Positions 19,937 through 51,435 of a stretch of DNA of 64,000 nt are shown here, piece by piece. The notes under the pieces were generated by a model that saw nothing but the letters and a program-made list of their open reading frames with translations, was not told the DNA's origin and did no database searches. Numbering within the stretch: position 1 is the first letter of the stretch; every line of letters starts with the position of its first letter. This DNA comes from Gammaproteobacteria bacterium (GTDB lineage Bacteria > Pseudomonadota > Gammaproteobacteria > Chromatiales > Chromatiaceae): the NCBI GenBank assembly GCA_024206335.1, contig JAAGZL010000342.1:747-64746 (forward strand), given 5' to 3'. A program made the translations under genes and the position numbers.

Positions 19937-20008
19937 GCTGTGCTCTGGACCAGTCACAAGCTGATTGATAGGATGGGCGACCATATTCGTAACCTGATGA
20001 GATTACCC

Positions 20009-20697: not shown

Positions 20698-20739
20698 CCG
20701 GCAGGATAGCTACCACCACCCTGATCAACATACTACCGG

Positions 20740-21138
20740 TCAGGCACCACAACTCTGACCAAACAACTCCAGTTCAACCTCTTGCTGTACTCTGTCCCTG
20801 CAGTGCACTATATGGTTATCAGTCAGGGTTACATCGCCCATTATTTCAAGCATGGACGCTTGATCAATATCGAACATGGCCACGGCGCATATCGCCTCCT
20901 TGTCGGCGTCGTTATCGGCCTTCTCCAACAGTTCCACCGTTGGAATGCCCTCCATATGACGCTGAACAAACCACTTTCTGAGTAGGTCCATGGGGATATT
21001 ACAGAAGCAGTGCTTCGGGTGTGGTAAATGAGCGGTGAGTTTCATACTGCTGCCCCCATTGCTATCGACCATCAAATCCGGCCTACACCCCTGACTTATA
21101 CGCCCATTGGCAGGCATCTGTCCAATAGGAGGTTGCAC
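20740..21138 (-). CDS. Hypothetical protein downstream of dsrR (start uncertain, possibly 21045)
   Basis: ORF only. No recognisable motif. Same strand as, and directly after, the dsr cluster. Confidence 0.4.
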   Translation of the reverse strand: MQPPIGQMPANGRISQGCRPDLMVDSNGGSSMKLTAHLPHPKHCFCNIPMDLLRKWFVQRHMEGIPTVELLEKADNDADKEAICAVAMFDIDQASMLEIMGDVTLTDNHIVHCRDRVQQEVELELFGQSCGA

Positions 21139-21188
21139 TCAAATCTCTATTCAGGGCCCTGCGATGCAGAATAAGCGATACCTATGGT

Positions 21189-21503
21189 TCAGCTTCCTTC
21201 AGGCGGTATATATGTCTCATCATTCGGATTCATGAAGATAAACCTGAACTCATCTTCAGCAACGGCCAGATAGTCCATGGTCGCCCCTTCTAACAGGCGC
21301 ACATATTTTGGTTCTATAACAATCTCTATATCGCCGGCCTGAACATGAATATCATCATCTTTAGCCGCATCAAATCCAATCAGATAGACTATGGAACCAT
21401 CCTCTTTCATCTCTGCGGCCAAACGCAGTGGGTCGCCAACAGAGTCATTGGTCTCGGCTGATAGTTTTACCTGTTGTATAGCTGCATCTGTTAGTTTAAG
21501 CAT
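21189..21503 (-). CDS. dsrR: DsrR (IscA/HesB-like protein without the cluster-binding cysteines)
   Basis: A-type carrier fold pattern (LKLTDAAIQQVK...LRL...GF...FIFMNPN) with no Cys at all. It follows dsrN, as in Allochromatium vinosum. ATG at 21503 preceded by GAGGTGAG. Confidence 0.7.
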   Translation of the reverse strand: MLKLTDAAIQQVKLSAETNDSVGDPLRLAAEMKEDGSIVYLIGFDAAKDDDIHVQAGDIEIVIEPKYVRLLEGATMDYLAVAEDEFRFIFMNPNDETYIPPEGS

Positions 21504-21591
21504 ACTCACCTCTGGTTGAATCAAATTCCATATCTACTCTTAGGTTAGATCTACCAGAAACGCTATCGCTTATTCTGGCCTACGACAAGGC

Positions 21592-22983: not shown

Positions 22984-23022
22984 AATAGCGATTGATTGTA
23001 CGAGATATCAGCAGGGATTAAA

Positions 23023-23048
23023 AAGCCCAATGCCGTGGCATTGGGCTT
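23023..23048 (-). terminator. Terminator/attenuator-like hairpin between dsrP and dsrN
   Basis: Perfect 12-bp arms AAGCCCAATGCC / GGCATTGGGCTT. On the minus-strand RNA the stem runs into UUUUUAAU. Confidence 0.5.
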
Positions 23049-23083
23049 ATAACCAATCTCAGCACGATCCGGTTCAGTATGAA

Positions 23084-24280
23084 TCAGATGCTGTCCGGGT
23101 CTTCCAGACTATCCGGTAACATCGGGAACATACGGGCCGCCACAGCAACAATGGTCATGGCCACAACCACCCCGCCAAAGCCCAGCATGGCCTCAGGCAA
23201 CGTGGGTACATAGCTATTAACCATTCCATCAAAAAAGCTGCTCTCAACCACCTCTTTACCCGGAAACAGGGTCATGGGGAAGGCCTGGCCTCCGATCACA
23301 ATCACGTATATCTGAAAGAAGCCACCCACCAACACCAGCACCGAAGCTGCCATCACAGCAAAACGCGAAGCGGAAAAGGCCGGGGAGTAGATCAGGAATA
23401 GTGGGATAACCCCACCAATCAACACCTGTCCAATCCAGAACATCTTGGTGTAGACACCACCTTCCAACAGGATAAAGTTCTCAATTCCATGGTGTTGGGT
23501 AATATAGAGATTGCTCAGATGATATACCGTGGCAAAGTATAGTACTGCCGCAACAAATACCCCCAGCAGGTTCCTCAGCTTGGCTATGCGCACATCACCT
23601 ATTTTACGGTCATCCCACCAGTAGGCAGCCATCAGTGTAATAATAAAAAATGCCAACCCATAGCTAAATGACATGATGATAAACATAGGCGCCATAATGG
23701 CTGCATCATACGCCTCACGCGCCACCAGGAAACCAAAGATGGAACCGGTACCAGTGGTCAGTGCCAGACGCCACAGAAATGCGGTGATACCAAGGGGCCG
23801 ATACAGGGCCTTGCCCTTACGGTCGATCATGGCCCACAGATAAAATCCAACAATGACAAAGAAGCCGGTATACAGGTAGATATTCCAGGCAAAGATGGAC
23901 TTGAAGTTGTACTTGGTCATGGCGATGATCAGGCGATCCGGGCGACCCAGATCAAGCACCAACACCATCAGGCCACCAGCCAGCAACGCAATGGCCAATA
24001 TACTGGAGAAGCGACCCAGAGGCTTATACATGGGACCGCCAAACACCGAGCCGATGGATGCCACATTCAGGGCGCCAGAGGCGGCCACGATCAGGAAGAT
24101 GGCAAATACATGGGGCAGACCCCAGACTATCTGGTTGGTCATGCCGGTCACATAGTGGCCGTTGTGTTCCATGTGGTACACAGACACAAGCGCCAGTAAG
24201 ATCAGAAAGGCCATGACGCCCATGCCAGTCCAGAAACGGGGTGATTCACACCCTAATTCGCGATAGTTAATCTTTTCCAT
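23084..24280 (-). CDS. dsrP: DsrP, NrfD/PsrC-like integral membrane quinone-interacting subunit
   Basis: 398 aa, about 10 TM helices, NrfD-like. Sits between dsrO and dsrN. Confidence 0.85.
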   Translation of the reverse strand: MEKINYRELGCESPRFWTGMGVMAFLILLALVSVYHMEHNGHYVTGMTNQIVWGLPHVFAIFLIVAASGALNVASIGSVFGGPMYKPLGRFSSILAIALLAGGLMVLVLDLGRPDRLIIAMTKYNFKSIFAWNIYLYTGFFVIVGFYLWAMIDRKGKALYRPLGITAFLWRLALTTGTGSIFGFLVAREAYDAAIMAPMFIIMSFSYGLAFFIITLMAAYWWDDRKIGDVRIAKLRNLLGVFVAAVLYFATVYHLSNLYITQHHGIENFILLEGGVYTKMFWIGQVLIGGVIPLFLIYSPAFSASRFAVMAASVLVLVGGFFQIYVIVIGGQAFPMTLFPGKEVVESSFFDGMVNSYVPTLPEAMLGFGGVVVAMTIVAVAARMFPMLPDSLEDPDSI

Positions 24281-24299
24281 CGAGTAGGCCCCTATACGG

Positions 24300-25076
24300 C
24301 TAGACGTTCGTGTACCGAACAGCAGTGTTCAACTTAAGATCTTCACGCAGCTGGCGGCTGTGGCTCTGCTTCAGCACCTTGGATACGGCGCTGTTAGGAT
24401 CCTTTAGATCCCCAAAGACAATGGCGTTATGACCCTCTTTGCTACAGGCTTCAGCACAGGCGGTATTGCCATCACCGGCATCCAGGCGGTTGGCGCAGAG
24501 ATTACATGCCTCAACACAACCCTTTCCGCGTGGGGATTCCACCACCTGCTCTGCCACATCGGCATGGATAAAGGAACGCGCCTTGTATGGGCAGGCCATC
24601 ATGCAGTAGCGACAACCGATGCAGATATGACGATCAACCATGACGATACCATCGGCACGCTTGAATGAAGCGCCGGTAGGACATACATCCACACATGGCG
24701 CCTCTTCACAGTGCTGACACATCAGCGGCAGGTTGCTCACCATTCCGGTCTGGGTATCCTTCAGTTTTACCTTGCGAATCCACTGCGGGCGCTGCTCATC
24801 CCACATCGCATCCGAATGACCTTCAGGCTTTTTCACCAGATCGATGCCATTCTCCTTCTCACAAGCAGAGACACAGGAGGAACATCCATCCGCACACTTA
24901 TTTGTGTAAATCAGCATGCCCCAGCGGGTGTTGCTGGAAGCGGCCTTCGTAGCGGCATTGGCATCAGCCGTAGTAAGAAGCACGCCTGGAGCAATCGTGG
25001 CCGTAGAGGCAGCGATTACTGACTTAGTGAGAAATTCACGTCGCTTCATATCTGGTTGTTGTTTGCGGTTACTCAT
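24300..25076 (-). CDS. dsrO: DsrO, periplasmic 4Fe-4S ferredoxin-like subunit (Tat signal)
   Basis: Twin-arginine signal KRREFLTKS and several CxxCxxCxxxCP ferredoxin motifs (CIGCRYCMMACP, CQHCEEAPCVDVCP). The ATG at 25076 is preferred over the upstream start at 25109, which would overlap dsrJ. Confidence 0.85.
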   Translation of the reverse strand: MSNRKQQPDMKRREFLTKSVIAASTATIAPGVLLTTADANAATKAASSNTRWGMLIYTNKCADGCSSCVSACEKENGIDLVKKPEGHSDAMWDEQRPQWIRKVKLKDTQTGMVSNLPLMCQHCEEAPCVDVCPTGASFKRADGIVMVDRHICIGCRYCMMACPYKARSFIHADVAEQVVESPRGKGCVEACNLCANRLDAGDGNTACAEACSKEGHNAIVFGDLKDPNSAVSKVLKQSHSRQLREDLKLNTAVRYTNV

Positions 25077-25078
25077 AT

Positions 25079-25471
25079 TCACTTCTCCTCCGGCACCTTG
25101 CGGTGACACTGGAAACAGGTGATATTCACCGCCGCATAGTCATGACAAGAATCGCAAAACTGATCTTTTGCATTAACCGGCACCGGGTGTCCCTTCTTAT
25201 CTTTTGAGGCATGACAGTTGACGCATTCGGCCAGGGCGAATTTACTGCTCCTGTCACCCTTATGTACTACCTCGTCCCGCTGGTGCTTGAGATATTCCAT
25301 GTGGTTGCGCCGCATATCCATCTGGGGGGCAACACATCCACCCTTATCCATACCTGCAGCCTTTGATCCTTCTACAACGGTCGAATCACTGATGGCGGCG
25401 GTGGCGAATGAGAGCAATACGCTTGCCACCATCATGACCGCTACCCGTTTGAGGTCTATTAACCTATGCAT
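25079..25471 (-). CDS. dsrJ: DsrJ, triheme cytochrome c
   Basis: 130 aa, N-terminal signal anchor, three CxxCH motifs (CVNCH, CDSCH, CFQCH). Confidence 0.85.
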   Translation of the reverse strand: MHRLIDLKRVAVMMVASVLLSFATAAISDSTVVEGSKAAGMDKGGCVAPQMDMRRNHMEYLKHQRDEVVHKGDRSSKFALAECVNCHASKDKKGHPVPVNAKDQFCDSCHDYAAVNITCFQCHRKVPEEK

Positions 25472-25501
25472 TACAGCTAAGCTCCTATTGACTGGAGAGG
25501 T

Positions 25502-27037
25502 TTAATCATCATTTTCCTGCTCTTCATCATCACCTTCACTCTTCTGAGTGGTGAGAATGAGGGCATTACCGACCAACTGGTGAACGCTGACGATCTGGTC
25601 CATTTCCATACCGAAGTAAGGCAGCACCTTGGTGAACTGGCTCTTACAGATGGCACAGATGGCGGCCATATGGGTAACGCCTTTTTCATTCATGGCGTTT
25701 TGCAGGGCCGTCATTCTGGGCACTGCACCATTAACCCGGGTCTCCATCAGATCATCGGTCAGCAGGCCACCACCTCCACCACAGCAGAAGGTCTTTTCAC
25801 CGATGGTGTCCTGATGCATGTCCACATAGTTATTGCAGACCGCCTTGATTACGTTGCGCGGAATCTCAAACTGGCCACCTGGCTTATCCCCCATGCGGGT
25901 GGCTCTGGCCACGTTGCAGGAATCATGAAAGGTGAGGACCATATCGTCATTCTGTGACTTATCAAGGTTGAGTCTGCCCTCCTTGATCAAATCATCGGTG
26001 AACTCGCAGATATGCTGCGGCACCGGGTAGTCAGGATCGAGAAAGTCGAATGGGCCAGCCAGGGTATTCAGGAAGGCGTATGCCACACGCCAGGCGTGAC
26101 CACACTCACCAAAAACAATACGCTTTACACCCAGTTCCAATGCAGCCTCACGTACCCGCAACGCCACTCGCCGCATGTTCTCGTAACTGCCAATGAACAT
26201 ACCAAAGTTACCGGCCTCGGAGGCAGTGGTACTCATGGTCCAGCTGATCCCGGCCTCGTGAAACACCTTACCGTAGCCGATCAAACCATCCACATGGGGT
26301 TCAACAAAAAAGTCGGCTGATGGGGTAACCAGCAGAACCTCGGCACCCTTCACGTCCAGTGGGAATTTTACCTCTACGCCAAAGTCATCCACCATGTCCT
26401 CTTCCAGACCTTCGAGGGTATTCTCGATGGCGGGACCGGGCAGACCCAGGTTGTTACCAATCTTATGGACCTTGGCAATGATTTCATTGCAGTACTTCTG
26501 GCCATAGCCAATGCTGTCCAGGATCTCACGTGCCGCCATGGAGATCTCTGCGGTATCTATGCCATAAGGGCAGAATACTGAGCAACGGCGGCACTGGGAG
26601 CACTGATGATAGTAGTTGTACCAGTCATCCAGGGTCTCTCGGGTCAGATCCTCGGCACCCACCAGCTTGGGAAAATACTTACCAGCAAAGGTAAAGTAGC
26701 GCCGGTATACCTTGCGCAGTAGATCCTGACGACCTACCGGCATGTTTTTGGGGTCCTTGGTGCTTAAGAAGTACTGACACTTGTCGGTACAGGAACCGCA
26801 CTTAACGCAGGCATCAAGAAACACCTGGAGCGAACGGTAACGACCGCGTAGATCATCCAGTTTTTCCAGTGCTTTATCGTGCCAATCTTCAACCAGTTCT
26901 CCTGGAAACCCAAGATCTGTATTGTGTTCAGGCTTGGTGACCACGAATGACTTAACGTGCGCCATCGTGCCCTCCTCAACCTCGGGAACATCCACATACT
27001 CTTGGAGTTCTGGTACGTCAAATTCTGCCTTGGCCAT
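25502..27037 (-). CDS. dsrK: DsrK, HdrD-like iron-sulfur catalytic subunit
   Basis: CVKCGSCTDKC and CSQCRRCSVFCP ferredoxin motifs plus CCG domains (FCCGGGGG). Confidence 0.9.
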   Translation of the reverse strand: MAKAEFDVPELQEYVDVPEVEEGTMAHVKSFVVTKPEHNTDLGFPGELVEDWHDKALEKLDDLRGRYRSLQVFLDACVKCGSCTDKCQYFLSTKDPKNMPVGRQDLLRKVYRRYFTFAGKYFPKLVGAEDLTRETLDDWYNYYHQCSQCRRCSVFCPYGIDTAEISMAAREILDSIGYGQKYCNEIIAKVHKIGNNLGLPGPAIENTLEGLEEDMVDDFGVEVKFPLDVKGAEVLLVTPSADFFVEPHVDGLIGYGKVFHEAGISWTMSTTASEAGNFGMFIGSYENMRRVALRVREAALELGVKRIVFGECGHAWRVAYAFLNTLAGPFDFLDPDYPVPQHICEFTDDLIKEGRLNLDKSQNDDMVLTFHDSCNVARATRMGDKPGGQFEIPRNVIKAVCNNYVDMHQDTIGEKTFCCGGGGGLLTDDLMETRVNGAVPRMTALQNAMNEKGVTHMAAICAICKSQFTKVLPYFGMEMDQIVSVHQLVGNALILTTQKSEGDDEEQENDD

Positions 27038-27064
27038 GGAATTTCCTCTTCGGCTCAGCTCAGT

Positions 27065-27799
27065 CTAATTCTGTTCTTCTTCGAGCGCCTTCGCCCATGG
27101 GACGATATGGCGTTTCTCGCGTGGATTATCAACCTGGTTCCTGGTTGGGCTAAAGAAAATACCAGGCACGTGCAGCAACTTGCTAAACGGAAAGATCAGC
27201 ATCAGCAGAGCAACCAGAGAGAGATGGATAATGAGTGGGAAATCAGCCGGCAGCTGTCCACCGTTAAAGGTAAAGAACTGTTTGATGGCGACGATATCCG
27301 TGTGCACTACGAACGTCATCATCAGGCCACTGAACCCGATAAATCCCAGCATTAGCAGCATCAGGTAATCAGATGGCGCTGAGATATAACGCACCCGATC
27401 AACCAGAACACGCCGCAGAAACAGCCCGACCAGCCCCAACACCATGCCAAAACCAGCATACATGCCAAACGGCTGGACCAGTTCAATCAGGGTCCATACC
27501 ACTGCGGGGACGGCATCCGGTTCAATGAAGTAACGCAGATGTCGGATTAATACCAGGAGCAGGGCCATGTGAAAAACCCAGGAAAAGATCCAGGTCCACT
27601 TGGTGCTCTTGAACAGACTCTCGAAAAATACCACTTCCCGGAACATACGTAACACAACACCACTCTTGGTAACAGGTGCTGGTGTAGTAACAATCTTCAA
27701 TGGAACCGGGGTCTTGGCATACTGGATGATCTTCAGCGTCAGGCCCACCACAAAGACAAGGCTTGCGAGAATAAACAGCAGCGCAAAGAAAAATGACAT
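27065..27799 (-). CDS. dsrM: DsrM, NarI-like diheme cytochrome b
   Basis: Five-TM protein with conserved His residues. Sits directly upstream of dsrK. The ATG at 27799 (MSFFFALLF) is preferred over the start at 27844. Confidence 0.85.
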   Translation of the reverse strand: MSFFFALLFILASLVFVVGLTLKIIQYAKTPVPLKIVTTPAPVTKSGVVLRMFREVVFFESLFKSTKWTWIFSWVFHMALLLVLIRHLRYFIEPDAVPAVVWTLIELVQPFGMYAGFGMVLGLVGLFLRRVLVDRVRYISAPSDYLMLLMLGFIGFSGLMMTFVVHTDIVAIKQFFTFNGGQLPADFPLIIHLSLVALLMLIFPFSKLLHVPGIFFSPTRNQVDNPREKRHIVPWAKALEEEQN

Positions 27800-27967
27800 G
27801 ATCCTGCGATCCTCCGTCGGGTTTAACCAGCCCCACAAGAGCACACACCGCAGAATAAAAGCGAGGTTAATGGCCTCCTAATATATAGACGAAAACCGTA
27901 TCTATTATTATTCAGCTATCCAGTTCAGACAGCAACAGCCACGTACTTATGAGGTTCTGGTCTAACT

Positions 27968-27999
27968 GACCGGCAGCAGACTTTTGTCTACTGCCAGTC
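27968..27999 (-). promoter_or_regulatory. 14-bp intercistronic stem-loop just 3' of dsrC
   Basis: Minus-strand RNA GACUGGCAGUAGAC-AAAA-GUCUGCUGCCGGUC (12 Watson-Crick and 2 G-U pairs). No U-tract follows on the coding strand. The A7/T7 tract lies on the dsrC side. Confidence 0.5.
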
Positions 28000-28014
28000 A
28001 TGTTTTTTTACTGC

Positions 28015-28347
28015 TTAGATACAGCCGGTTGGCTTAGGCAGACCAGCATAGCGGCAGGCCTGCTTACCTGGGCCGTATGGGAACAGGGCGTACAGGTATT
28101 TGCTGTTGCCCTTTTCCTTACCAAGCTTCTTACCAACAGCCTTGGTGAGAACACGTACTGCAGGAGCAATCTGATATTCCTGGTAGTACTCACGCAGAAA
28201 GTTAATGATGTCCCAATGCTCATCACCAAGCTCCAGGTCATCCTCTGCAGACATAACGTTTGCAATACCAGGCACCCAGTCGTCCAGGTTTACCAGATAA
28301 CCTTCTTCATCAACTTCATAACTTTTACCGTCTACTTCGATAGCCAT
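28015..28347 (-). CDS. dsrC: DsrC, sulfur-trafficking/heterodisulfide protein
   Basis: 110 aa. The C-terminal arm ...GPGKQACRYAGLPKPTGCI carries both conserved cysteines (CysB in QAC, penultimate CysA). Confidence 0.9.
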   Translation of the reverse strand: MAIEVDGKSYEVDEEGYLVNLDDWVPGIANVMSAEDDLELGDEHWDIINFLREYYQEYQIAPAVRVLTKAVGKKLGKEKGNSKYLYALFPYGPGKQACRYAGLPKPTGCI

Positions 28348-28391
28348 GCACTTTCTCCTAACGTTAATCTATTTGGGGCAGATATTCTGAA

Positions 28392-28697
28392 TCAGACCCA
28401 GGCTTGAACTTTGTCGTGTTCGGCAGACAGGTCTACAAAACCCGCATAGTCCACGATCTCAATTCCATCAATCATCTTATCATCAGTAATGCCACGCGCC
28501 TTCAGGTCAGCACCCAGAGCATACAACTTTACTCCATCGAATCCCGCCACCAATGGCTCAATACTGGCACCCTTAAGAACCGCATAAACTGCATCCTCAT
28601 AGAAGAGTATGGAACTACCCTCTAAAGCATGAGCCAGACAGCTACCAACTGAACTTTTCTCAAAAGGTGATTTATTTACTGTGTGTAAAATACTCAT
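28392..28697 (-). CDS. dsrH: DsrH
   Basis: 101 aa DsrH/TusB fold (MSILHTVNKSPF...SC...). Third gene of the dsrEFH triplet. Confidence 0.85.
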   Translation of the reverse strand: MSILHTVNKSPFEKSSVGSCLAHALEGSSILFYEDAVYAVLKGASIEPLVAGFDGVKLYALGADLKARGITDDKMIDGIEIVDYAGFVDLSAEHDKVQAWV

Positions 28698-28711
28698 TCG
28701 TATGCTCCGCC

Positions 28712-29122
28712 CTAGAAACTGAAAATGACATCCTGCTGATCCAGCACACTGCTGAGTTCAGCACGGCTGACAACACGGATTGAGTCTTTTTCTGCCCAAT
28801 CTTCATCCTCATCTTCCCATTTCAGATCCATCAGATCATCAATGGTCAGGCCACGTTCTTCCAGTGACTCCTGCTCTACGTAAAGTTTGGTGACATCATA
28901 ATCACCCAGAGCGGCATAGGTTGGAGAGAAATTCTTGGTCTCTATATCAGACGTATCCTGGTTCTTCAACAGCTGATACACGCCATCATCAAAGAATGCC
29001 ACGCTGACATCCTGATCAAAGGCAGCACCAATCAAAACAACCTCCAGTGATTCCCAGGCATAGATAGTACCATGGGGAGCACGGCGGTTGACGTACATGA
29101 ATTTTTTAATATCTTCAGACAT
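28712..29122 (-). CDS. dsrF: DsrF
   Basis: 136 aa DsrF/TusC-like, lying between dsrE and dsrH. Confidence 0.85.
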   Translation of the reverse strand: MSEDIKKFMYVNRRAPHGTIYAWESLEVVLIGAAFDQDVSVAFFDDGVYQLLKNQDTSDIETKNFSPTYAALGDYDVTKLYVEQESLEERGLTIDDLMDLKWEDEDEDWAEKDSIRVVSRAELSSVLDQQDVIFSF

Positions 29123-29139
29123 GGATTCAACCTCTGTGC

Positions 29140-29532
29140 TTAATCACCGAAAACGACCAGACGATCGGCCTGGACAGCAGCTTCGATCAACTGCCCCAGC
29201 CCGGAGATACGAAACCCGGGGGCAATATTCTCAGCGTCTTTGCCATTACGTTGCATCTCACCCTCATCCACGATACCGCGACGTTGGGCAGCTGCCACAC
29301 AAACCACCATATCCAGATCATGCTTTTCTGCCAACTCGCTCCAGCGGTTAACAATATTGCGATCATCCTGTGGAGGAGTGGTCAGCTTAGTGCCGTTATT
29401 TACACCATCGTGGTAGAAGAAGACACGAAAGATCTCGTGCCCCTTCTCCAGTGCCGCCTTGGTAAATTGATAGGCGGAATCGGTAGCCTGATGCTGATAT
29501 GGCCCTTCATTTACTTGAATTGAAAACTTCAT
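29140..29532 (-). CDS. dsrE: DsrE
   Basis: 130 aa. MKFSIQVNEGPY... and the active-site Cys context DMVVCVAAAQRRG are typical of DsrE/TusD. Confidence 0.9.
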   Translation of the reverse strand: MKFSIQVNEGPYQHQATDSAYQFTKAALEKGHEIFRVFFYHDGVNNGTKLTTPPQDDRNIVNRWSELAEKHDLDMVVCVAAAQRRGIVDEGEMQRNGKDAENIAPGFRISGLGQLIEAAVQADRLVVFGD

Positions 29533-29563
29533 CTGTTTTCCTTTTAACTTTCGTCAGACCAAC

Positions 29564-30634
29564 TCAGAAACGAACGTGAGAAGACGCATTCAAGTTAGCA
29601 CGACCACCACGCCAGTTATCAATGTGGTACTTGGTAAACGGCAGATCAGTCTTCTCGAAGAAGCTACCCCAGCCAATACGCTCAGCCCACTCACCAATAC
29701 GCTCGTAATCCTTGGCGTCTTCCTTATAGGCCGCGAGGATGCGTTTTACCACATCTCCAACCTCAGGCCAGCGCGGCGGATTATTTGGCACGTTGGATGC
29801 GACCAGTTTATGGAAGGTCGGCTTGCTACGGGCGTTGGAGTTCTTACCACCTACCCAGATAGCAAAGTTAGAATGCTCAGGATCGTTGATCTGCATGGGC
29901 GGACATGGTGGAAAACATGCACCACAACATACGCACTTGCGCTCATCAACTTCAAGAGAAGGCTTGCCGTTAACCATTGCCGGGCGAATAGCAGCTACCG
30001 GGCAACGTGCAACAACCGTAGGACGCTCACATACGTTGGCAACCAGATCATGGTTGATCTTAGGTGGCTTAACGTGCTGAATGTTGATGGCAATATCACC
30101 CTGTCCGCCGCAGTTAATCTGGCAGCAGGAGGTGGTAATCTTTACCCGGTTAGGCATCTCTTCATGTTCGAACTCGTGAACCAGTTCATCCATCAGGGCC
30201 TTAACCGCACCAGAGGCGTCGGTACCAGGAATATCGCAGTGCAACCAACCCTGGGTGTGGGCAATCATGGATACTGAGTTACCAGTACCACCGATTGGAT
30301 AGCCGCACTCGGTCAGCTTATCCATCAGCGGCTTAACCTGCGCCTCGGTGCTCACCATATATTCAATGTTGGAACGAGAGGTAAAACGGACATAACCTTC
30401 AGCCAAATCATCGGCGATATCCATAAGCTCACGAATCATGGTTACGTCCATCTGACGCGGGGTGCCGGCACGTACGGTCCAGAGCTCATCGCCGCTGTTG
30501 GCAACATGGCGCAGAACACCAGGACGTGGGCGATCATGGAACTTCCAATCACCATAGTTCTTCTTCATTACCGGATGCAGATATGGATCTATCTCCGGTA
30601 CACCTGTCTCTTCGGGCATGCGAGGTTGGGACAT
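29564..30634 (-). CDS. dsrB: Dissimilatory sulfite reductase beta subunit (oxidative type)
   Basis: Siroheme/FeS cysteine clusters (TTSCCQINCGG, CPVAAI, CVCCGACFPPCP). ATG at 30634 preceded by GGAGA; the track's TTG start at 30646 is unlikely. Confidence 0.9.
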   Translation of the reverse strand: MSQPRMPEETGVPEIDPYLHPVMKKNYGDWKFHDRPRPGVLRHVANSGDELWTVRAGTPRQMDVTMIRELMDIADDLAEGYVRFTSRSNIEYMVSTEAQVKPLMDKLTECGYPIGGTGNSVSMIAHTQGWLHCDIPGTDASGAVKALMDELVHEFEHEEMPNRVKITTSCCQINCGGQGDIAINIQHVKPPKINHDLVANVCERPTVVARCPVAAIRPAMVNGKPSLEVDERKCVCCGACFPPCPPMQINDPEHSNFAIWVGGKNSNARSKPTFHKLVASNVPNNPPRWPEVGDVVKRILAAYKEDAKDYERIGEWAERIGWGSFFEKTDLPFTKYHIDNWRGGRANLNASSHVRF

Positions 30635-30672
30635 AATTATCTCCAAATATCTCTATTTCTAATTCATCTCGT

Positions 30673-30705
30673 GGCGCATAACCGAACCTGGGTCCGGTAT
30701 GCGCC
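30673..30705 (-). promoter_or_regulatory. GC-rich stem-loop in the dsrA-dsrB spacer
   Basis: GGCGCATAACCG (30673-30684) pairs with CGGTATGCGCC (30695-30705) with one bulged A. It sits in a 110-nt intercistronic gap. Confidence 0.45.
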
Positions 30706-30744
30706 GCGTATAAACCTGACGGTCAAGGCTGACAAACAGTCTTA

Positions 30745-31989
30745 TCAGTCGGCAGCCTTGCGCTCATTCCACTTGGCTGCTTCCTCATCCCAACCGTCCA
30801 TACGTATGTATGAGTTCGAACGTGGATTGCTGATCATGTTTGGATCCACTTCGAGGCCGACACCTTCCAGGAAACCTGCCAGGCCGATGCGCTCGATCAT
30901 CTCACCGGTACGCTCATGCTCCAGGGCATTCTCGGCAAAGAAGTCGATTACTTCGGTAGCCAACTCTTCCAGAGCCTCGAAGTCATCATCGGTTTCAAGC
31001 TTCATGAATGGGACGATCACGGTACCCATGAGGTCACCGATCTTCAAGGTACGCTTACCGCCACACAGGATGGTGATACCCTTGTCATCTCCAGGAGAGA
31101 GCGCCTTGTTCATGACATTCAGACAGTGCATGCAGCGCACGCAGTTCTTGTTGTCCACGTCCAGGGTGTCGTCATCGTTCAGAGACAGCGCCTTAGTCGG
31201 GCAGCGGGTGATTACGTTGTCTACAACGTACTTACGACCCTTCTCACCTACGTAAGCCTTGACCTCTGCCTGATCCACCTTCATATCGTCACGCCAGGTA
31301 CCGAGAACGGCAAAGTCGGAACGCTGAATGGAGTTAACGCAGTCGTTGGCGCAACCGGATACTTTATACTTGAACTTGTATGGCAGTGCCGGACGATGCA
31401 TATCATCCAGCACATTATTGACCAGCATACGCATGGTGCGCGCTTCATCAAAGCAGGACATCTCACAACGTGCAGCACCAACGCAGGACATACCGGTACG
31501 TACAGCAGGACCTGCACCACCCATATCAAAGCCCATTTCGTTGAACTCATCGAATGCAACCTGCACCTTCTCGGTGGTGCAACCCTGCATCATGATGTCG
31601 CCAGTCTGCCCATGCAGGGCAATCAGGCCAGCGCCATGCTCTTCCCAGATGTCACAGAACTTACGCATGGTAGCTGTGTCATAGTGCATGCCTGGAGGCG
31701 GAATGATACGGATGGTATGGAACTCGGCACATGCAGGAAACAGCGGGTTGTTATTGTCATCCTTCAGCTCGGTGAAGCGAGGAATAACACCGCCACCGTA
31801 ACCAATAACGCCAACGGTTCCGCCCTTCCAGTAGCCTAATTTAGTCTCGTATGAGGTCTCAAGCTGACCCAACAGGTCAACTACCATGTCCTTATCCTTT
31901 GCCAGACGTTTCAGACCAGTTACGAAACTCGGCCATGGGCCAGTTTCCAGCTGATCGAGCATCGGAGTATCATGCAGTGGTTTTGCCAT
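30745..31989 (-). CDS. dsrA: Dissimilatory sulfite reductase alpha subunit (oxidative type)
   Basis: 414 aa. MAKPLHDTPMLDQLETGPWPSFV..., siroheme-binding Cys motifs (CVGAARCEMSC, GCANDC) and a ferredoxin insert (CPTKAL...CVRCMHC). Confidence 0.95.
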   Translation of the reverse strand: MAKPLHDTPMLDQLETGPWPSFVTGLKRLAKDKDMVVDLLGQLETSYETKLGYWKGGTVGVIGYGGGVIPRFTELKDDNNNPLFPACAEFHTIRIIPPPGMHYDTATMRKFCDIWEEHGAGLIALHGQTGDIMMQGCTTEKVQVAFDEFNEMGFDMGGAGPAVRTGMSCVGAARCEMSCFDEARTMRMLVNNVLDDMHRPALPYKFKYKVSGCANDCVNSIQRSDFAVLGTWRDDMKVDQAEVKAYVGEKGRKYVVDNVITRCPTKALSLNDDDTLDVDNKNCVRCMHCLNVMNKALSPGDDKGITILCGGKRTLKIGDLMGTVIVPFMKLETDDDFEALEELATEVIDFFAENALEHERTGEMIERIGLAGFLEGVGLEVDPNMISNPRSNSYIRMDGWDEEAAKWNERKAAD

Positions 31990-32553
31990 TACTTTAATCT
32001 CCCAATAATCATTAAATATGGGTTATCTCACCACACCCTTGGATTCATGCTTTGAAATCACAAAAAATCCGGGTGAATAATCTATGCGAATCGGAACCTT
32101 TAGCAACAAACTTACCAAACGCTCCATAGCTACAGAATGGCAAAAAGTTTAGAATTTCCTAATGAAGTAAAATATCCCTACGATGGGGTAGCGGTATAAA
32201 AAAACTACTCCCCACTATGGGGTATATTTTTAAAAATAATGCGCATATTATTTTTATTTTAGGGGGCATTACCTTGTTGATTAGAGATACTATTTTCATA
32301 CTGGACCGCCTTTTTTTATCGGCAAATCCAGTGGCCAGGGCACTATTTGATATATATCAAGCAATCAAATACGCGTTGAAATATTGCTATCCCGCCCCAA
32401 CCAATCCCATATCGATCAAACTATTTAATGCAAACCCACATTTATCCTATCTCCATCTTCTTGCCAATGGATAGTGAATGGAGTTGAATAATATACACCC
32501 GCCCAATCAACGGCGAGCATCCGGCACACAACGCCAGGCCAGCAGATTCAGCC

Positions 32554-32769
32554 ATGGCACCCCTTAACAACCTGATAGAGGTCCTAATCAGAATGCTGTA
32601 CCTAAGTGAGATATTGATCCAAAATCCGGATCTGCAATCTTTCGAACAACTACTCTCCGCAGTCAAAGAGCGCTCTAAGAGTGAGATGTTCTTCCGTATT
32701 GATGTAAAACCTCAATACCAGGACACACCTGAAGACTGGGAAGACCGCATGGAAGCGGCATTTACATAG
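32554..32769 (+). CDS. Small hypothetical protein, first ORF of the dsrA-divergent module
   Basis: 71-aa ORF ending 11 nt before the next gene. Weak ribosome-binding site. No family recognised. Confidence 0.35.
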   Translation: MAPLNNLIEVLIRMLYLSEILIQNPDLQSFEQLLSAVKERSKSEMFFRIDVKPQYQDTPEDWEDRMEAAFT

Positions 32770-32780
32770 AGCCTATAGAG

Positions 32781-33491
32781 ATGAAGTACCTGAAAAACGA
32801 ATTTCGTATCGGTGATGCTGAAGGTGGTGAAGACGCAGTCATATCCACCCAGAACCTGGAATCCAAGCTAATGCAGATCCAGGATGAAATAGAGCAGCTG
32901 CCCGCCAGCACCAATACCAGCCAACGGCTGAAACTGACACTGGACCGGTGCTACCTGTTACTGGATCTGGAGCGTCAGGATGAGGCATGGAACAGCTCCA
33001 ACACCACGCTTAAACAGGCCCTGACAGAGAATCTATGGACCCGGGCCGTAGAATCCTGCGATATTATGTTCCAGACTGGTAATAAGGAGTCCATCCGGGC
33101 CCTGGCCCATGGCATCTGGCTGGCAGTCACCTTTCCTATCGACCCTGAACTCAGTGTTGCCATGCTGCAGCACCTGATCGACGAAACCCCGGACAACTCC
33201 GACGGTGCCGCGGTTGCAGCCGCAACTGCCTGCTACCTGGTGGATCTGCGAGCCAAGGGAGAACAGCACGAAGAGTTACATTTCTTCACTAGCCAGTTGA
33301 TGGGACAGGTGGCAAAACGCCACAGCCAGGTCGAGGAGAAAGAGATCTTTGACTTCTGGGTTGAGCGTCTGGAGCTGAATGAGCCAGGCAAATTCCTCCC
33401 ACGACTGGCACAGGTTCTGGATGTCCTCACCGAGGACAACTGGTGGTTTGACCGGGATCAGTTAAGAGATCTGATACCGGGCGAAGCCTAA
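32781..33491 (+). CDS. Hypothetical helical protein (dsrA-divergent module)
   Basis: 236-aa ORF with coding-like composition, tightly spaced with its neighbours. No family recognised. Confidence 0.55.
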   Translation: MKYLKNEFRIGDAEGGEDAVISTQNLESKLMQIQDEIEQLPASTNTSQRLKLTLDRCYLLLDLERQDEAWNSSNTTLKQALTENLWTRAVESCDIMFQTGNKESIRALAHGIWLAVTFPIDPELSVAMLQHLIDETPDNSDGAAVAAATACYLVDLRAKGEQHEELHFFTSQLMGQVAKRHSQVEEKEIFDFWVERLELNEPGKFLPRLAQVLDVLTEDNWWFDRDQLRDLIPGEA

Positions 33492-33508
33492 CCCCGAGGT
33501 AACTAAAT

Positions 33509-34168
33509 ATGCTCTGGCAGGATGAAAAGGAAAATACCCCTTACCAAATACCGGATGATGTGGTCGATCTATCGTTCAGCATCAGTTGCACATCCATACC
33601 AGTAGACAACGCCTACGCCCTATCCAACGCCATTATTGCGATACTGCCATGGTTCAGCAGTGAACCAGAGGCCGGACTGCACATTATGCAAGGCGGTGCC
33701 TCCATCAATGGCTGGCATCGGCCGGAGACCGAGGACGCAACACTGCTCCTGTCGAAACGCTCCAAACTGCGCCTGCGTCTACCCAAGCACAGGGTCAAAG
33801 ATGCAGAACAGCTCTGCGGCAAGCTACTGGATGTGTCCGGTTACAGCGTCGAAGTTGGAACGTTCAAGACCCTGCTCCTTGGCAACACCGACACCCTGTT
33901 ATCCCGTCACATAGTCTCTGCCATTGAAGAGGACGAAACCGAATTTACCGAACGCATGCTGCAGGAACTACGGGGTATGGGGCTGGAACTCACCAAGATA
34001 CTATCCGGCAGAGATCACGCCCTGGCCGGGCCGGACGGCCCCATCAATACCAAATCCCTGCTGGTAAGCGGCATGACAGCCGAAGATGCTGTCACTCTCC
34101 AGGCAAAGGGAATTGGTCCAGGCCGCAGTATGGGATTCGGCTTGTTCATTGCGTCAAAGAGCTTATAA
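33509..34168 (+). CDS. Orphan Cas6-like RAMP protein (Cas6/Cmx6-like)
   Basis: 219 aa. The C-terminal KGIGPGRSMGFGLFI fits the Cas6 glycine-rich loop G-h-G-x5-G-h-G exactly. Its size and near-C-terminal loop position fit Cas6. No CRISPR array or other cas genes in the window. Confidence 0.5.
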   Translation: MLWQDEKENTPYQIPDDVVDLSFSISCTSIPVDNAYALSNAIIAILPWFSSEPEAGLHIMQGGASINGWHRPETEDATLLLSKRSKLRLRLPKHRVKDAEQLCGKLLDVSGYSVEVGTFKTLLLGNTDTLLSRHIVSAIEEDETEFTERMLQELRGMGLELTKILSGRDHALAGPDGPINTKSLLVSGMTAEDAVTLQAKGIGPGRSMGFGLFIASKSL

Positions 34169-34210
34169 TATTGGCTTATGTTAATTTAATTAATTTCCCT
34201 GCCTTCGCCA

Positions 34211-34238
34211 CCACGTGAGAGATTTCATACTCATGTGG
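34211..34238 (+). promoter_or_regulatory. Stem-loop between the Cas6-like gene and the DsrC-like gene
   Basis: CCACGTGAG-agatttcata-CTCATGTGG: 9 bp including one G-U pair, with a 10-nt loop. It lies 52 nt upstream of the DsrC-like ATG. Confidence 0.4.
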
Positions 34239-34289
34239 GCCAGGTAGGGCAACAGAATTCAGCATAGATTTAAAATAAGGAGAATACAG

Positions 34290-34634
34290 ATGGCATACGA
34301 ACTGAACGGCGCAACCATTGAGACCAACGCCAATGGTTACCTGGAAAACCTAGACGACTGGAGTGAAGAGCTGGCAGGGGTTATTGCCGCAGCTGAGGGT
34401 ATCGAACTGTCAGACCGGGGTTGGGAGATAATCAACTACCTGCGCGATGAATACCTCAACAACAACAGCAATCAGCCCAACGAACGTCACATGGTCAAAC
34501 ACTTCAAGAAGCTCTGGACCGACCTGGACAAGGTGGACACCAAGGCCCTGTACATACACTTCCCCATGGGCCCCGCTAAACAGGCCGGTAAGATTGCCGG
34601 ACTGCCTGAGACCCGCCGTAAGGGTGGATACTAG
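34290..34634 (+). CDS. DsrC/TusE-family protein lacking both conserved cysteines (RspA-type)
   Basis: Aligns by eye with the dsrC product (YLENLDDWSEELA..., HFPMGPAKQAGKIAGLPE vs LFPYGPGKQACRYAGLPK). It has no Cys anywhere and ends in RRKGGY instead of PTGCI. AGGAGA ribosome-binding site. Confidence 0.8.
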   Translation: MAYELNGATIETNANGYLENLDDWSEELAGVIAAAEGIELSDRGWEIINYLRDEYLNNNSNQPNERHMVKHFKKLWTDLDKVDTKALYIHFPMGPAKQAGKIAGLPETRRKGGY

Positions 34635-34654
34635 GCGTTAATTCGGACACACCA

Positions 34655-34685
34655 ATCAACCTGCCAGTGATGCTGGCAGGTTGAT
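34655..34685 (+). promoter_or_regulatory. Perfect 13-bp stem-loop sequestering the start codon of the next gene
   Basis: ATCAACCTGCCAG-tgatg-CTGGCAGGTTGAT. The A and T of the ATG at 34684 are in the 3' arm. No U-tract follows. Confidence 0.55.
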
Positions 34686-35253
34686 GGAGAGCACATTGGC
34701 ACTAAGAATCAAGAGTCACTGGCACAAAGAAGAGAAAGATAGATCTATCGACGAGATTGCCGGAGCTATAGCCTTCAGCAGTTGGCGCATAGCCATGGAG
34801 AAGGCGATAACACTGCACAGTGAGCAGTTCGACTACAGCTCTGACCGACAACGCCTGGACGTCATAGCCGAGTACCTGCTGTTTTCAGCACAGGTGGTGG
34901 ACCGCCTGGTACATAAAAACTTCACCCCGCAAGAACGTCAAGAGCTTATTATCTCCCTTGTTACCCGTCTGGCAGAACATCTGCAGGAGAACAGCCAGGA
35001 CCTACTGGGTTCCGGAGACTACCGCACCCCATTCATCAACAAGTTCAACCTACGCTCCGAAGAGTACGCCCAACTAAGCTTTGACCAGGACGACGGCCCC
35101 AGCTACCCCTTCATGCGCCACCTTGGATACGAGATCCAACAGCTTATGGGGGACGAACAGGAAAACCGCTGGATCATCGACCAGGTAATGGACAAGGATG
35201 GGTTTGAGGTCTATACCCAGCTCAAAAAACTGGTAAAAAACCTCACTACCTAA
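34684..35253 (+). CDS. Hypothetical protein, last gene of the dsrA-divergent module
   Basis: About 189-aa ORF with coding-like composition. No family recognised. Confidence 0.55.
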   Translation: MESTLALRIKSHWHKEEKDRSIDEIAGAIAFSSWRIAMEKAITLHSEQFDYSSDRQRLDVIAEYLLFSAQVVDRLVHKNFTPQERQELIISLVTRLAEHLQENSQDLLGSGDYRTPFINKFNLRSEEYAQLSFDQDDGPSYPFMRHLGYEIQQLMGDEQENRWIIDQVMDKDGFEVYTQLKKLVKNLTT

Positions 35254-35370: not shown

Positions 35371-36861
35371 ATGCAGATATTCTCACCACACACATCCCAC
35401 GCCAGAGGCATGGCCATCTTCATCAGCACCATGCTGCTGCTTTCTAACCTGTTATCTACAGCCATTGCCGGGAGTATTGAACTACCAAGCTTTGGCGACC
35501 CCAGCGGCAGGGTAATGACCCCAACCCAGGAACGAAGACTTGGGCAGGCCTTTATGCGCAACGTGCGCAAATCATTAAAGGTTGTTTCTGACCCTCTGTT
35601 AAATTCATACATAGAGTCACTGGGTATGCGCCTAGTATCCAACAGTAGTGATGCCAACCAACCATTCTCATTTTTTCTAGTAGACAACAAAGAGGTAAAT
35701 GCCTTTGCCGGCCCAGCAGGGAACATTGCAGTATTTACCGGCCTAATCCTGACCACAGAGTCTGAAAGCGAACTCGCCTCAGTAGTAGCACACGAAATCG
35801 CCCACATCACGCAGAAACATCTGGCCAGGACATTCGACTCAGCAGAACGCATGGGGATACCAACTGCTGCAATAATGCTTGCTGCAGTCATTTTGGGTGC
35901 AGCATCAAACAACTCAGATGTCGGTGCTGCAGCAGCGGCTGGAATTCAAGCTGGCCTGATCCAGCAGCAGATAAACTTTACCCGTGAAAATGAAAAAGAG
36001 GCCGACCGTGTAGGCATAAACATACTCGCCGATTCAAAATTTGACCCTAGGGCAATGCCGACCTTTTTCACCCGCCTTGGAAAGGTAAACATGGTCTACG
36101 ACGGTCACAAACTACCAGAGTTTTTACAGACTCACCCCATATCCAAAAACCGCATGGCCGACACCTTGGGACGGGCAGCGACCTACCCCTACCGGCAATA
36201 CCAGGACAGCAAGGAGTACCACTTGACCCGGGCCATCCTGCGCGAGCAACAATTCAACGACCCAAACCAGGCGGTAAAGTTTTATAGCAAAACCCTGGCT
36301 GAAGGCAGATACCGTAATGCTCAAGCGCAGCGCTATGGTCTGGTACGGGCACTGATTCGCACTCACAAATACCAGGAGGCCATGAAACATATCAACCTGC
36401 TGCTAAATAAAGACAGGAGCAGTGTCCACTACCTGACTACTAAAGCAGAGATATACAGCCAGACATCCAGACCAAAACAGGCAATCAAAATTCTACAAAA
36501 AGGGCTAAAACTCAATCCAGACAACTACCCTTTGACCACATACTATGCAAACGCCCTGCTACATAACGGCCAAGCAGCAAAAGCCGAGCGCATCCTAGAG
36601 CAGTTGATTAAAAGACACCCACAGGACACCACCCTGAACAAAATGGCAGCAATGGCAGCAGGCAAAGCCGGACACATCGCCCAAGGACACTATTTCATGG
36701 CCGAGCACTACTATCTTTCTGGCGACCTGGAATCGGCCCAACGCCAATTGGAGATATCATTGAACAACAGCAGAAACGATTTCTACATTAGCGCAAAAAT
36801 GGCGGCAAGGCTTAAAGATATCAAGCAGGAAATCTCCGACCTAAAGCAACGCAAACACTAA
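35371..36861 (+). CDS. Periplasmic M48 zinc metalloprotease with TPR domain (BepA/YfgC-like)
   Basis: Signal peptide, HEIAHITQKH (HExxH) and ENEKEAD, then C-terminal TPR repeats. Confidence 0.8.
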   Translation: MQIFSPHTSHARGMAIFISTMLLLSNLLSTAIAGSIELPSFGDPSGRVMTPTQERRLGQAFMRNVRKSLKVVSDPLLNSYIESLGMRLVSNSSDANQPFSFFLVDNKEVNAFAGPAGNIAVFTGLILTTESESELASVVAHEIAHITQKHLARTFDSAERMGIPTAAIMLAAVILGAASNNSDVGAAAAAGIQAGLIQQQINFTRENEKEADRVGINILADSKFDPRAMPTFFTRLGKVNMVYDGHKLPEFLQTHPISKNRMADTLGRAATYPYRQYQDSKEYHLTRAILREQQFNDPNQAVKFYSKTLAEGRYRNAQAQRYGLVRALIRTHKYQEAMKHINLLLNKDRSSVHYLTTKAEIYSQTSRPKQAIKILQKGLKLNPDNYPLTTYYANALLHNGQAAKAERILEQLIKRHPQDTTLNKMAAMAAGKAGHIAQGHYFMAEHYYLSGDLESAQRQLEISLNNSRNDFYISAKMAARLKDIKQEISDLKQRKH

Positions 36862-36884
36862 CCAAGCATTTCCTAAGCAGCAAC

Positions 36885-37364
36885 ATGCGCACAGACCTAA
36901 AACGCAGACTGTTTCTCAAATACCTTCTAGCCAAAGGCACAATTACAACAGCAATATGCACCGGCCTGATAACGCCACACTCTGCCCTAGCAGCCTGGCC
37001 CAAGAAAGCATTCGAGGCTACTACCATCCCAACCGCATTAAATGCGCTACTAGGTAGCGACAAAACCAGAACTAGGCGTTATGCCACTGAAGTCAAAACC
37101 AGACCACACATGAATAATAGCGGCACCCAGGTAACAGTCACCATCACCACCACTATTCCAGAGGTAGACTCCATAACTCTGTTGGCGACTAGTAACCAGA
37201 CACCACTGGTCGCATGTTTTAATTTTGGTGGAAGAACTATCGATTCACTAGCCACACGAATAAAGATGGAAGGCAAAGGTGAAGTAATTGTCATACTCAA
37301 GTCAGGCGACCGTCTATTCAGCGAACAGACCGAAGTAGACTTTTCTGGTTGCGGATGTGGTTAA
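36885..37364 (+). CDS. soxY: SoxY sulfur carrier protein (variant C-terminus)
   Basis: Tat-like signal (KRRLFLKYL), SoxY beta-sandwich pattern, and a C-terminal swinging arm ending ...DFSGCGCG (canonical GGCGG). Confidence 0.8.
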   Translation: MRTDLKRRLFLKYLLAKGTITTAICTGLITPHSALAAWPKKAFEATTIPTALNALLGSDKTRTRRYATEVKTRPHMNNSGTQVTVTITTTIPEVDSITLLATSNQTPLVACFNFGGRTIDSLATRIKMEGKGEVIVILKSGDRLFSEQTEVDFSGCGCG

Positions 37365-37400
37365 AAGATTCCACTAATACTCAGGAGAGCACAAGGTATT

Positions 37401-37718
37401 ATGTCAGCAAAACCCATACAAATAAGAGCCAAGCACACCAAGGGTGTTACCACAGTAAGGGCATTAATCAAACACCAGATGAGTAACTCCAAAAGCAGCC
37501 CCATCAATAAAAACAAGGGTAGCAACCCTCACTTTATTCAGGAAGTCACATGCAGCCTTGGTGACAATATTATTCTATCAGCACTTTGGGGAAGTGATAT
37601 CGCAAAAGATCCGTTCCTAGCATTTACCTTTAAAGGTGGAAACAAGGGTGAGACTATCCGGCTAAGCTGGGTAGACAACATGGGCAAACGCGACTCTATT
37701 GAAACCATTGTAGCTTAA
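37401..37718 (+). CDS. soxZ: SoxZ
   Basis: 105 aa. IRAKHTKGVTTVRALIKHQM...HFIQEVTC... is a typical SoxZ pattern. Directly downstream of soxY. Confidence 0.8.
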   Translation: MSAKPIQIRAKHTKGVTTVRALIKHQMSNSKSSPINKNKGSNPHFIQEVTCSLGDNIILSALWGSDIAKDPFLAFTFKGGNKGETIRLSWVDNMGKRDSIETIVA

Positions 37719-51348: not shown

Positions 51349-51435
51349 GCCGGGGTGGTGAAATTGGTAGACACAGGGGATTCAAAATCCCCCGGGAGCA
51401 ATCCCTTGCCGGTTCGAGTCCGGCCCCCGGTACCA
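51349..51435 (+). tRNA. tRNA-Leu (anticodon CAA)
   Basis: 87 nt with a cloverleaf readable by eye. Acceptor GCCGGGG/CCCCGGT, D-arm GTGGTGAAATTGGTAGACAC, anticodon stem GGGGA/TCCCC with loop TTCAAAA, long variable arm, T-arm GCCGGTTCGAGTCCGGC, and an encoded CCA. Confidence 0.9.

Follow-up and report, generated by a model that had tools for sequence, protein, structure and literature searches.

The window analysed here, a 64,000-nt stretch of a gammaproteobacterial genome (contig JAAGZL010000342.1; all positions refer to the full stretch), carries five open reading frames (ORFs) that lie on the plus strand in the same direction and diverge from dsrA, the third of which (ORF3) encodes a Cas6-like protein and the fourth (ORF4) a DsrC paralog devoid of cysteine. 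They represent a conserved module of gammaproteobacterial reverse-Dsr sulfur oxidisers that is independent of CRISPR (short palindromic repeats that are clustered and regularly interspaced) and is placed head-to-head with dsrA. Its parts come from known superfamilies and each is without a defining feature of its functional family, the Cas6-like protein having no CRISPR context and the DsrC paralog no cysteines, and the module was judged to be of a previously undescribed type. Full-text literature searches, in which subscription-only papers were not searchable, returned no description of a dsr-linked orphan Cas6, of a DsrC subfamily ending in RKGGY or of the three family-less proteins encoded with them; we likewise know of no account of the RKGGY subfamily or of its linkage to Cas6.

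Conservation of the module beside dsrA

Relatives of the Cas6-like protein were found in at least 466 species when one genome per species was scanned. Gene order was counted in the loci of the best 80 Cas6-like matches that had enough flanking sequence, and four more distant loci (L081–L084) were added. A divergent dsrA was present within 3.5 kb in 52 of 58 loci, orf1 stood directly upstream of cas6 in 72 of 77, and the DsrC paralog followed within 1.3 kb downstream of cas6 in 68 of 74; the tie to the oxidative Dsr pathway that an earlier note on this DNA had proposed thus passed the synteny check. The same gene order, dsrA included, was seen in the four added loci (metagenome contigs whose Cas6-like proteins are 39–41% identical). 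orf2 lay between orf1 and cas6 in 38 of 77 loci, and orf5 was found within 9.5 kb downstream of cas6 in 43 of 58, directly adjacent only in the clade of the window, in L040 and in L066. Since orf1, the Cas6-like gene and the RKGGY paralog are the genes that recur, they are taken as the conserved core. The earlier note had treated all five genes as one module, which holds for this core and was refined for the other two genes, orf2 being present in about half of the lineages and orf5 being loosely linked; the TPR-like orf2 and the helical orf5 are additions in the lineage of the window.

The titled genomes among the best 80 were gammaproteobacterial sulfur oxidisers or unclassified relatives, with the exception of one metagenome-assembled genome (MAG) labelled Halobacteria archaeon. 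Carriers include Sedimenticolaceae, Candidatus Thiodiazotropha, tubeworm and clam symbionts, Chromatiaceae, Ectothiorhodospiraceae/Thioalkalivibrio, Thiohalobacter, Thiogranum, Acidiferrobacterales, Thiothrix, Thiomargarita, Marithrix, Candidatus Muproteobacteria and Beggiatoaceae; a cultured carrier is Sedimenticola selenatireducens DSM 17993 (L021). Comparison with two related genomes gave ratios of non-synonymous to synonymous substitution rates (dN/dS) of 0.04–0.18 for the five genes, i.e. all are under purifying selection, with 0.04–0.06 for orf1. These ratios, and the recurrence of the arrangement in dozens of genomes, show that it is not due to chance.

The Cas6-like protein, the DsrC paralog and their partners

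ORF3 is a bona fide Cas6 homolog without CRISPR context, as judged from its sequence. The Cas6 assignment of the earlier note survived comparison with profile hidden Markov models, ORF3 matching Pfam Cas6 (PF09559) with E=2e-50 and 171.8 bits (cutoff 26.7) and NCBIfam TIGR02807 (cas6_cmx6) with 105.4 bits (cutoff 98.85), and comparison with a solved structure, in which a profile of 20 Cas6-like homologs (A1) aligned over its full length with the type I-B Cas6 of PDB entry 8fcj, chain B (E=1.9e-21, residues 16–218 onto 9–213). The glycine-rich loop of RAMP proteins is present as GIGPGRSMGFGLF, in which G201, G203, G209, G211 and F213 are invariant. His58 is nearly invariant and aligns with the histidine of the 'GIHPI' segment in 8fcj_B, and 13 columns of the family alignment are at least 80% Lys or Arg, including a patch at residues 83–95. 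With Cas6 of type I-B and type I-MYXAN (Cmx6) the module protein therefore shares homology over the full length, the glycine-rich loop, the aligned histidine and a size of ~220 aa. It differs from them in that neither a CRISPR array nor further Cas proteins are encoded around it, in that its neighbours are fixed and not cas genes (orf1, the DsrC paralog and dsrA), and in its acidic isoelectric point (pI) and a GNGWxRP insertion. This insertion is specific to the subfamily, being present in 132 of the best 150 representative clusters at 50% identity and missing from 8fcj. Counted at E<=1e-3, the wider Cas6-like family comprises 1472 clusters of this kind, a number that falls to 281 at E<=1e-30.

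The earlier note had also assigned the fourth ORF to the DsrC family and described it as free of cysteine, and both statements were confirmed. ORF4 matches DsrC PF04358 (E=6.4e-31) over nearly its whole length, up to the altered tail, and scores 93.3 bits against TIGR03342 (cutoff 53.5); the nearest solved structure is DsrC of Allochromatium vinosum (1yx3, E=4e-17). With the DsrC / TusE / RspA family it shares the FP.GP.KQ...AGLP arm, and it is 44% identical to the DsrC encoded in the same window, from which it differs in the absence of both redox-active cysteines and in its C-terminal tail ...AGLPETRRKGGY, which ends in RKGGY instead of PTGC[VI]. Among 45 orthologs encoded next to cas6, the RKGGY tail was found in 43 (one of the others ends in TKGGY and one is masked) and cysteine was absent from 38, while the true DsrC at the same loci keeps both cysteines and ends in ...C..AGLPKPTGC[VI]. 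ORF4 cannot carry a persulfide or trisulfide because both redox-active cysteines are missing. The TusE equivalog model NF008562 gave 89.1 bits, below its cutoff of 191, and the cysteine typical of TusE is absent; with no cysteine, the RKGGY tail and this score, ORF4 falls outside the definition of a sulfur-carrying DsrC or TusE. Cysteine-less proteins of the DsrC family were reportedly set apart as an 'RspA-like' group by Venceslau et al. in 2014, and ORF4 would belong there. The family name RspA is in use (PMC8477390), and four further DsrC paralogs are listed without assigned function in the genome of A. vinosum (PMC3368242). One of these four, Alvin_1508, falls on pyrite, as the dsr genes do.

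The other three products were left without a family in the earlier note and remain so: orf1, orf2 and orf5 gave no Pfam, NCBIfam, PADLOC family or PDB sequence match, and the models of orf2 and orf5 gave no specific Foldseek match. The start of orf1 was placed at the conserved Met14 by an alignment of 37 orthologs (A2), in which M14, L17, S18, F30, L33, D50, P53, P59, W62, E67 and F70 are invariant, and independent gene calls of 63–75 aa exist for it in L081–L084. A weak Pfam match of orf1 to Cas8b_C (E=0.09) was given by only 2 of the 37 orthologs and was discarded as noise. The AlphaFold2 model of orf2 consists of 11 helices (predicted local distance difference test (pLDDT) 86.5, predicted template modelling score (pTM) 0.85), for which the best Foldseek hits in the PDB were TPR-like proteins at E>=0.047, none of them specific. 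Among the best 120 of 4328 homolog clusters of orf2, no Pfam domain was found and all were unnamed or 'hypothetical' apart from one labelled as a TPR repeat protein. orf5 was modelled as a helical bundle (pLDDT 89.5, pTM 0.85) without Foldseek match in the PDB (best E = 0.13), and a Pfam domain was found in none of the best 120 of its 647 homolog clusters. In Halochromatium roseum orf5 occurs alone.

The earlier note had reported neither a CRISPR array nor another cas gene in the 64 kb, and scans for repeats, with Rfam and with PADLOC agreed with this: the window holds no spaced direct repeats and no Rfam CRISPR direct-repeat match, and among cas families PADLOC matched only Cas6 models in the 57 window ORFs, and these only in ORF3. 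The 81 related loci were screened with a simple array detector and none held an array, and other cas genes were not found among the recurrent neighbours in these loci. One array-like signal, at 1–275 of L048, was rejected as a perfect 55-nt tandem repeat of ~5 copies without spacers; the repeat belongs to a Thiotrichaceae MAG, where it sits at the edge of the contig and 3 kb upstream of orf1-cas6. That ORF3 is a leftover of a decaying type I-B/MYXAN CRISPR-Cas system, or part of a defence system, might be suggested by the curated Cas6/Cmx6 thresholds that it passes and by public records, which name it type I-MYXAN Cas6/Cmx6 (and orf2 hypothetical). Purifying selection acts on the gene, which is intact and stands beside the same genes, none of them cas, in hundreds of species; no array was found in the window or in the related loci, and PADLOC gave no family match for the four partner proteins. 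The remnant reading, which the earlier note had also thought improbable, is already contradicted by these observations and has next to no chance of being correct. As a separate observation, one of the 57 window ORFs matched the PADLOC model CARF3 (E=6.4e-7); it is none of the four non-Cas6 module proteins, DsrE, DsrF, DsrH, the two ORFs at 19922–20694 or the M48-like gene.

Anatomy of the locus, promoters and stem-loops

The coordinates of the module and of the elements around it are collected in Table 1. The five ORFs given in the earlier note were borne out by the ORF list, including the intergenic distances of 11, 17, 121 and 49 nt, the last of which applies to the ATG at 34684 and becomes 46 nt from the TTG start of orf5. 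The spacer between dsrA and orf1 is AT-rich (GC content 0.37–0.43 as compared with ~0.52 in the flanks) and measures 564 bp from the start as called, as had been noted; with orf1 starting at Met14 (32593) the true spacer is 603 bp and the product is shorter than first described, i.e. 58 aa instead of 71. ORF4 is preceded by a strong Shine-Dalgarno sequence, AAGGAG. None of the five proteins has long hydrophobic stretches, and all are expected to be soluble.

Table 1. Position and strand of the module genes, of dsrA and of predicted regulatory elements in the window
Feature	Position	Strand	Description
dsrA	30745-31989	-	First gene of the dsr operon
dsrA promoter region	32146-32224	-	-10 box TAAACT 32146-32151; palindrome site 1 32173-32190; palindrome site 2 32206-32224
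Putative sigma-70 promoter of the module	32461-32489	+	TTGCCA, 17-nt spacer, TTGAAT; ~105 nt upstream of orf1
orf1	32593-32769	+	58 aa from conserved start Met14; ORF as called 32554-32769, 71 aa
orf2	32781-33491	+	236 aa; acidic, all-helical TPR-like repeat model
ORF3, Cas6-like RAMP protein (Cmx6 / type I-B-like subfamily)	33509-34168	+	219 aa
ORF4, cysteine-less DsrC paralog	34290-34634	+	114 aa
GC-rich stem-loop	34660-34680	+	CCTGCCAG-TGATG-CTGGCAGG; between DsrC paralog and orf5, overlaps orf5 start region
orf5	34681-35253	+	190 aa from TTG; 189 aa from ATG at 34684; acidic helical bundle

The order of the dsr operon was read as dsrABEFHCMK-JOPN from the order and sizes of the ORFs and their Pfam families, and in the region 20000–32000 dsrABEFHCMK apparently runs straight into dsrJOPN. 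A tblastn search of the whole window with DsrL representatives of related loci gave no dsrL; some related genomes have this gene on the opposite side, past the downstream end of the module. On the 3' side of orf5 the window continues with a TPR-like gene of M48 type (assigned from sequence), soxY and soxZ (35371–37718). In genomes of the Sedimenticolaceae type (L006, L021, L035, L037 and L052) a MoxR-like ATPase gene and a VWA/metallopeptidase-like gene stand between orf5 and the M48-like gene. Other lineages (L004, L011, L038, L057, L073, L081 and many more) have a gene for a TauD-like dioxygenase between dsrA and orf1, and in these lineages the DsrC paralog is followed by genes for a ~70-aa protein, a PiuC-like 2OG-Fe(II) oxygenase and a ~108-aa protein, then by GNAT, another 2OG-Fe(II) oxygenase and DUF6866 genes and finally by orf5, up to ~9 kb past cas6. 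Two or three 2OG-Fe(II) oxygenases, GNAT, DUF6866 and small proteins make up the additional downstream genes in many lineages, which hints at modification of proteins or small molecules; the window lacks the TauD-like gene and all of these additional genes.

In the sense of dsrA, the spacer shows a fixed order in the large majority of 60 genomes, namely TATCCC-N4-GGGATA, ~18 nt, a second, imperfect palindrome and then a box (CTAAAAT, CTAGACT or CTAAACT), which stands at a constant +72 to +74. The two palindromes are ~34 nt apart, and if the box is taken as the -10 element they come to lie near -41 and -76, with leaders of 88–271 nt, mostly 112–180 nt. The relaxed pattern TATCCC-N3-9-GGGRTA occurs once in the window, 0.07 occurrences being expected. 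Half-site variants (TATCTC/GGGATA, TATCCC/GAGATA and TATCCA/GGGATA) are mostly uncompensated and favour neither strand, for which reason the palindromes were rejected as RNA hairpins and are read as operator DNA of a dimeric factor; from sequence they look like the operator of a dsr regulator. In the clade of the window a third palindrome, AATAAT-N6-ATTATT, is present at 32235–32252. For the module itself, a putative promoter in the clade of the window is provided by the TTGCCA-17-TTGAAT block, which is kept in the window, L001, L002 and L003, the flanking sequence not being kept.

Two candidate RNA elements were found. The spacer between dsrA and dsrB contains a strong stem-loop in 43 of 47 genomes, its position being kept and its sequence varying between clades; in the window (30647–30744, minus strand) it has a minimum free energy (MFE) of -35.5 kcal/mol and z = -4.5, and in Thiodiazotropha its sequence is conserved without compensatory changes. 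The second element, the stem-loop in front of orf5, has a perfect stem of 8 bp that can be extended to ~13 bp and buries the orf5 start codon; the fold of the ORF4-orf5 spacer has an MFE of -27.3 kcal/mol, and the stem is unique in the window, with 0 matches expected by chance. L001 and L003 have the stem sequence in the same position, and a related stem in L002 has a T-run behind it and looks like a terminator. Termination or attenuation between two separate units of expression is the probable role of the element. Both stem-loops lack the specificity that would justify naming them Cas6 substrates.

Proposed function of the module and rival explanations

What the module does can be proposed from the sequence data with graded confidence. 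Tentatively ranked first is a regulatory complex dedicated to the Dsr pathway, in which an exapted Cas6 would bind an RNA stem-loop and the DsrC mimic would link the complex to Dsr proteins. It is placed there because the only Cas6-family activity known to us is the binding and cleavage of RNA stem-loops and the determinants of this activity are kept in ORF3, and also because the dsr mRNA is long and contains stem-loops, with unequal levels reported for its cistrons. The module proteins would form a soluble complex regulating the Dsr pathway, whose Cas6-like subunit would derive by exaptation from a CRISPR system resembling type I-B/MYXAN and would still bind, and perhaps cut, an RNA stem-loop; its most plausible target would lie in the long polycistronic dsr mRNA, which has the conserved dsrA-dsrB stem-loop and, at ~150 nt, a structured leader. 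In this scheme the DsrC paralog mimics DsrC in globular fold and flexible arm, would carry no sulfur and would dock on DsrEFH, DsrAB or DsrMK, and this docking could make RNA binding respond to the state of the sulfur relay. The TPR-like orf2 product could be the scaffold and may hold the basic C-terminal tail in a clamp. A more specific form of this proposal, which we consider rather doubtful, is that a captured CRISPR Cas6 endoribonuclease has become fixed in sulfur-oxidising Gammaproteobacteria as a post-transcriptional regulator dedicated to dsr, an operon of energy metabolism, and that it, together with its 58-aa partner, binds or cuts dsr mRNA stem-loops, the RKGGY mimic reporting the occupancy of DsrEFH, DsrAB or DsrMK. 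As in stem-loop processing of the Cas6/Csy4 type, a RAMP protein is encoded beside a long transcript with stable stem-loops; unlike those of CRISPR pre-crRNA, the dsr stem-loops are single, 9–14 bp long, different between genera and without repeated units, and cleavage is putative here. In A. vinosum the dsrEFH and dsrC transcripts exceed that of dsrA, according to a passage of PMC3397948 that cites Grimm 2010, and such unequal cistron levels would fit processing of the operon mRNA.

Action on RNA through a RAMP endoribonuclease, with the DsrC-like protein as a sensor or nucleic-acid-binding partner, had been put forward in the earlier note; the retained glycine-rich loop, basic patch and His58 speak for the former, and the role given to the DsrC-like protein is conjectural. 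Several observations weigh against action on RNA. The five module proteins are all acidic (pI 4.4–5.2), and the pI of the Cas6-like clade ranges from 4.8 to 6.4, which is unusual among RNA-binding Cas6 enzymes. No RNA element specific to the module, or varying together with it, was found, and no hairpin is common to the dsrA leaders across clades. The cas6-ORF4 spacer was rejected as the site of a Cas6 substrate, each genome having its own local hairpin of unrelated sequence and structure. Rfam, applied at gathering threshold to the whole window and at E<=5 to 31800–35500, returned only a tRNA (51349–51432) and one chance match, and GC-rich intercistronic hairpins such as those described above are common in bacterial operons. 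Finally, in Beggiatoaceae the orf1-cas6 pair is intact and lies away from dsr.

A modulator or assembly factor that acts on proteins without any RNA is possible and nearly as likely, because the proteins are acidic, orf2 looks like a TPR scaffold and DsrD offers a precedent. The paralog, in which the body and arm of DsrC are kept and the reactive tip is altered, would then serve rDsrAB, DsrEFH or DsrMK as a decoy or as an allosteric partner, and the RRM fold of the Cas6-like protein, orf1 and orf2, which has a fold for protein interaction, would be protein scaffolds; the solubility of the five proteins and the lack of a specific RNA target agree with this. What such a modulator leaves unexplained is why the RAMP glycine-rich loop, the basic patch and His58 are invariant at an overall identity of ~40%, and we know of no Cas6-family protein that works without RNA. 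Such a modulator would correspond, on the oxidative side, to DsrD, a protein that resembles a winged-helix DNA binder and activates DsrAB allosterically; sulfur oxidisers with rDsrAB lack DsrD (PMC8794893). The likeness is one of role only, i.e. a small accessory protein encoded with dsrAB, with a fold like that of nucleic-acid binders and tied to one direction of the pathway; the fold of DsrD (a winged helix) is unrelated, and it is a single protein as compared with a module of five genes.

Two further explanations carry less weight. The DsrC paralog, alone or with partners, might bind the -41/-76 palindromes and activate or repress dsr as a transcriptional regulator, for which the operator-like layout at fixed spacing to the -10 box, the half-site mismatches (which fit a protein-bound DNA palindrome better than an RNA hairpin), the location of the palindromes in the spacer shared with the module, the helix-turn-helix-like motif of the DsrC fold and the binding of A. 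vinosum DsrC to dsr promoter DNA, reportedly described by Grimm et al. in 2010, can be adduced. We regard this as unlikely, the palindromes being fixed in their distance to dsrA and not to the module and being absent upstream of orf1-cas6 in the Beggiatoaceae loci; moreover, the paralog has an acidic pI of 5.1, the sites could equally be occupied by any unlinked transcription factor, and Cas6, orf1, orf2 and orf5 would be left without a role. More improbable again is a housekeeping function on RNA outside Dsr control, for instance of a TusE-like/RAMP pair on tRNA or rRNA, the adjacency to dsr being due to shared ancestry of the locus. TusE, the closest relative of DsrC outside the Dsr pathway, acts together with the tRNA thiolase MnmA, Beggiatoaceae keep the orf1-Cas6 pair at a site apart from dsr, and the module apparently has its own promoter, ~270 nt from the dsrA operators; these points are set against the head-to-head arrangement with dsrA, which is kept across many families despite spacers that are otherwise unalignable, the restriction of the best 80 loci to titled sulfur oxidisers or unclassified MAGs, and the closer relation of the paralog to DsrC than to TusE, as seen in the NF008562 score.

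The regulation of the reverse-Dsr pathway and the roles of several cysteine-less DsrC paralogs are standing questions (PMC3368242), for which the module offers a testable set of candidates, being conserved, linked to dsrA and present in free-living, symbiotic and cultured sulfur oxidisers. The palindromes in the dsrA promoter provide a second route into dsr regulation. The name 'type I-MYXAN CRISPR-associated protein Cas6/Cmx6', which automatic annotation gives to this subfamily, is misleading, and the module would exemplify a Cas6 kept across hundreds of species without any CRISPR system. If the captured Cas6 does act on dsr mRNA, this would be the first non-defence, CRISPR-independent task of a Cas6 protein and would supply a missing layer of control in the oxidation of stored sulfur.

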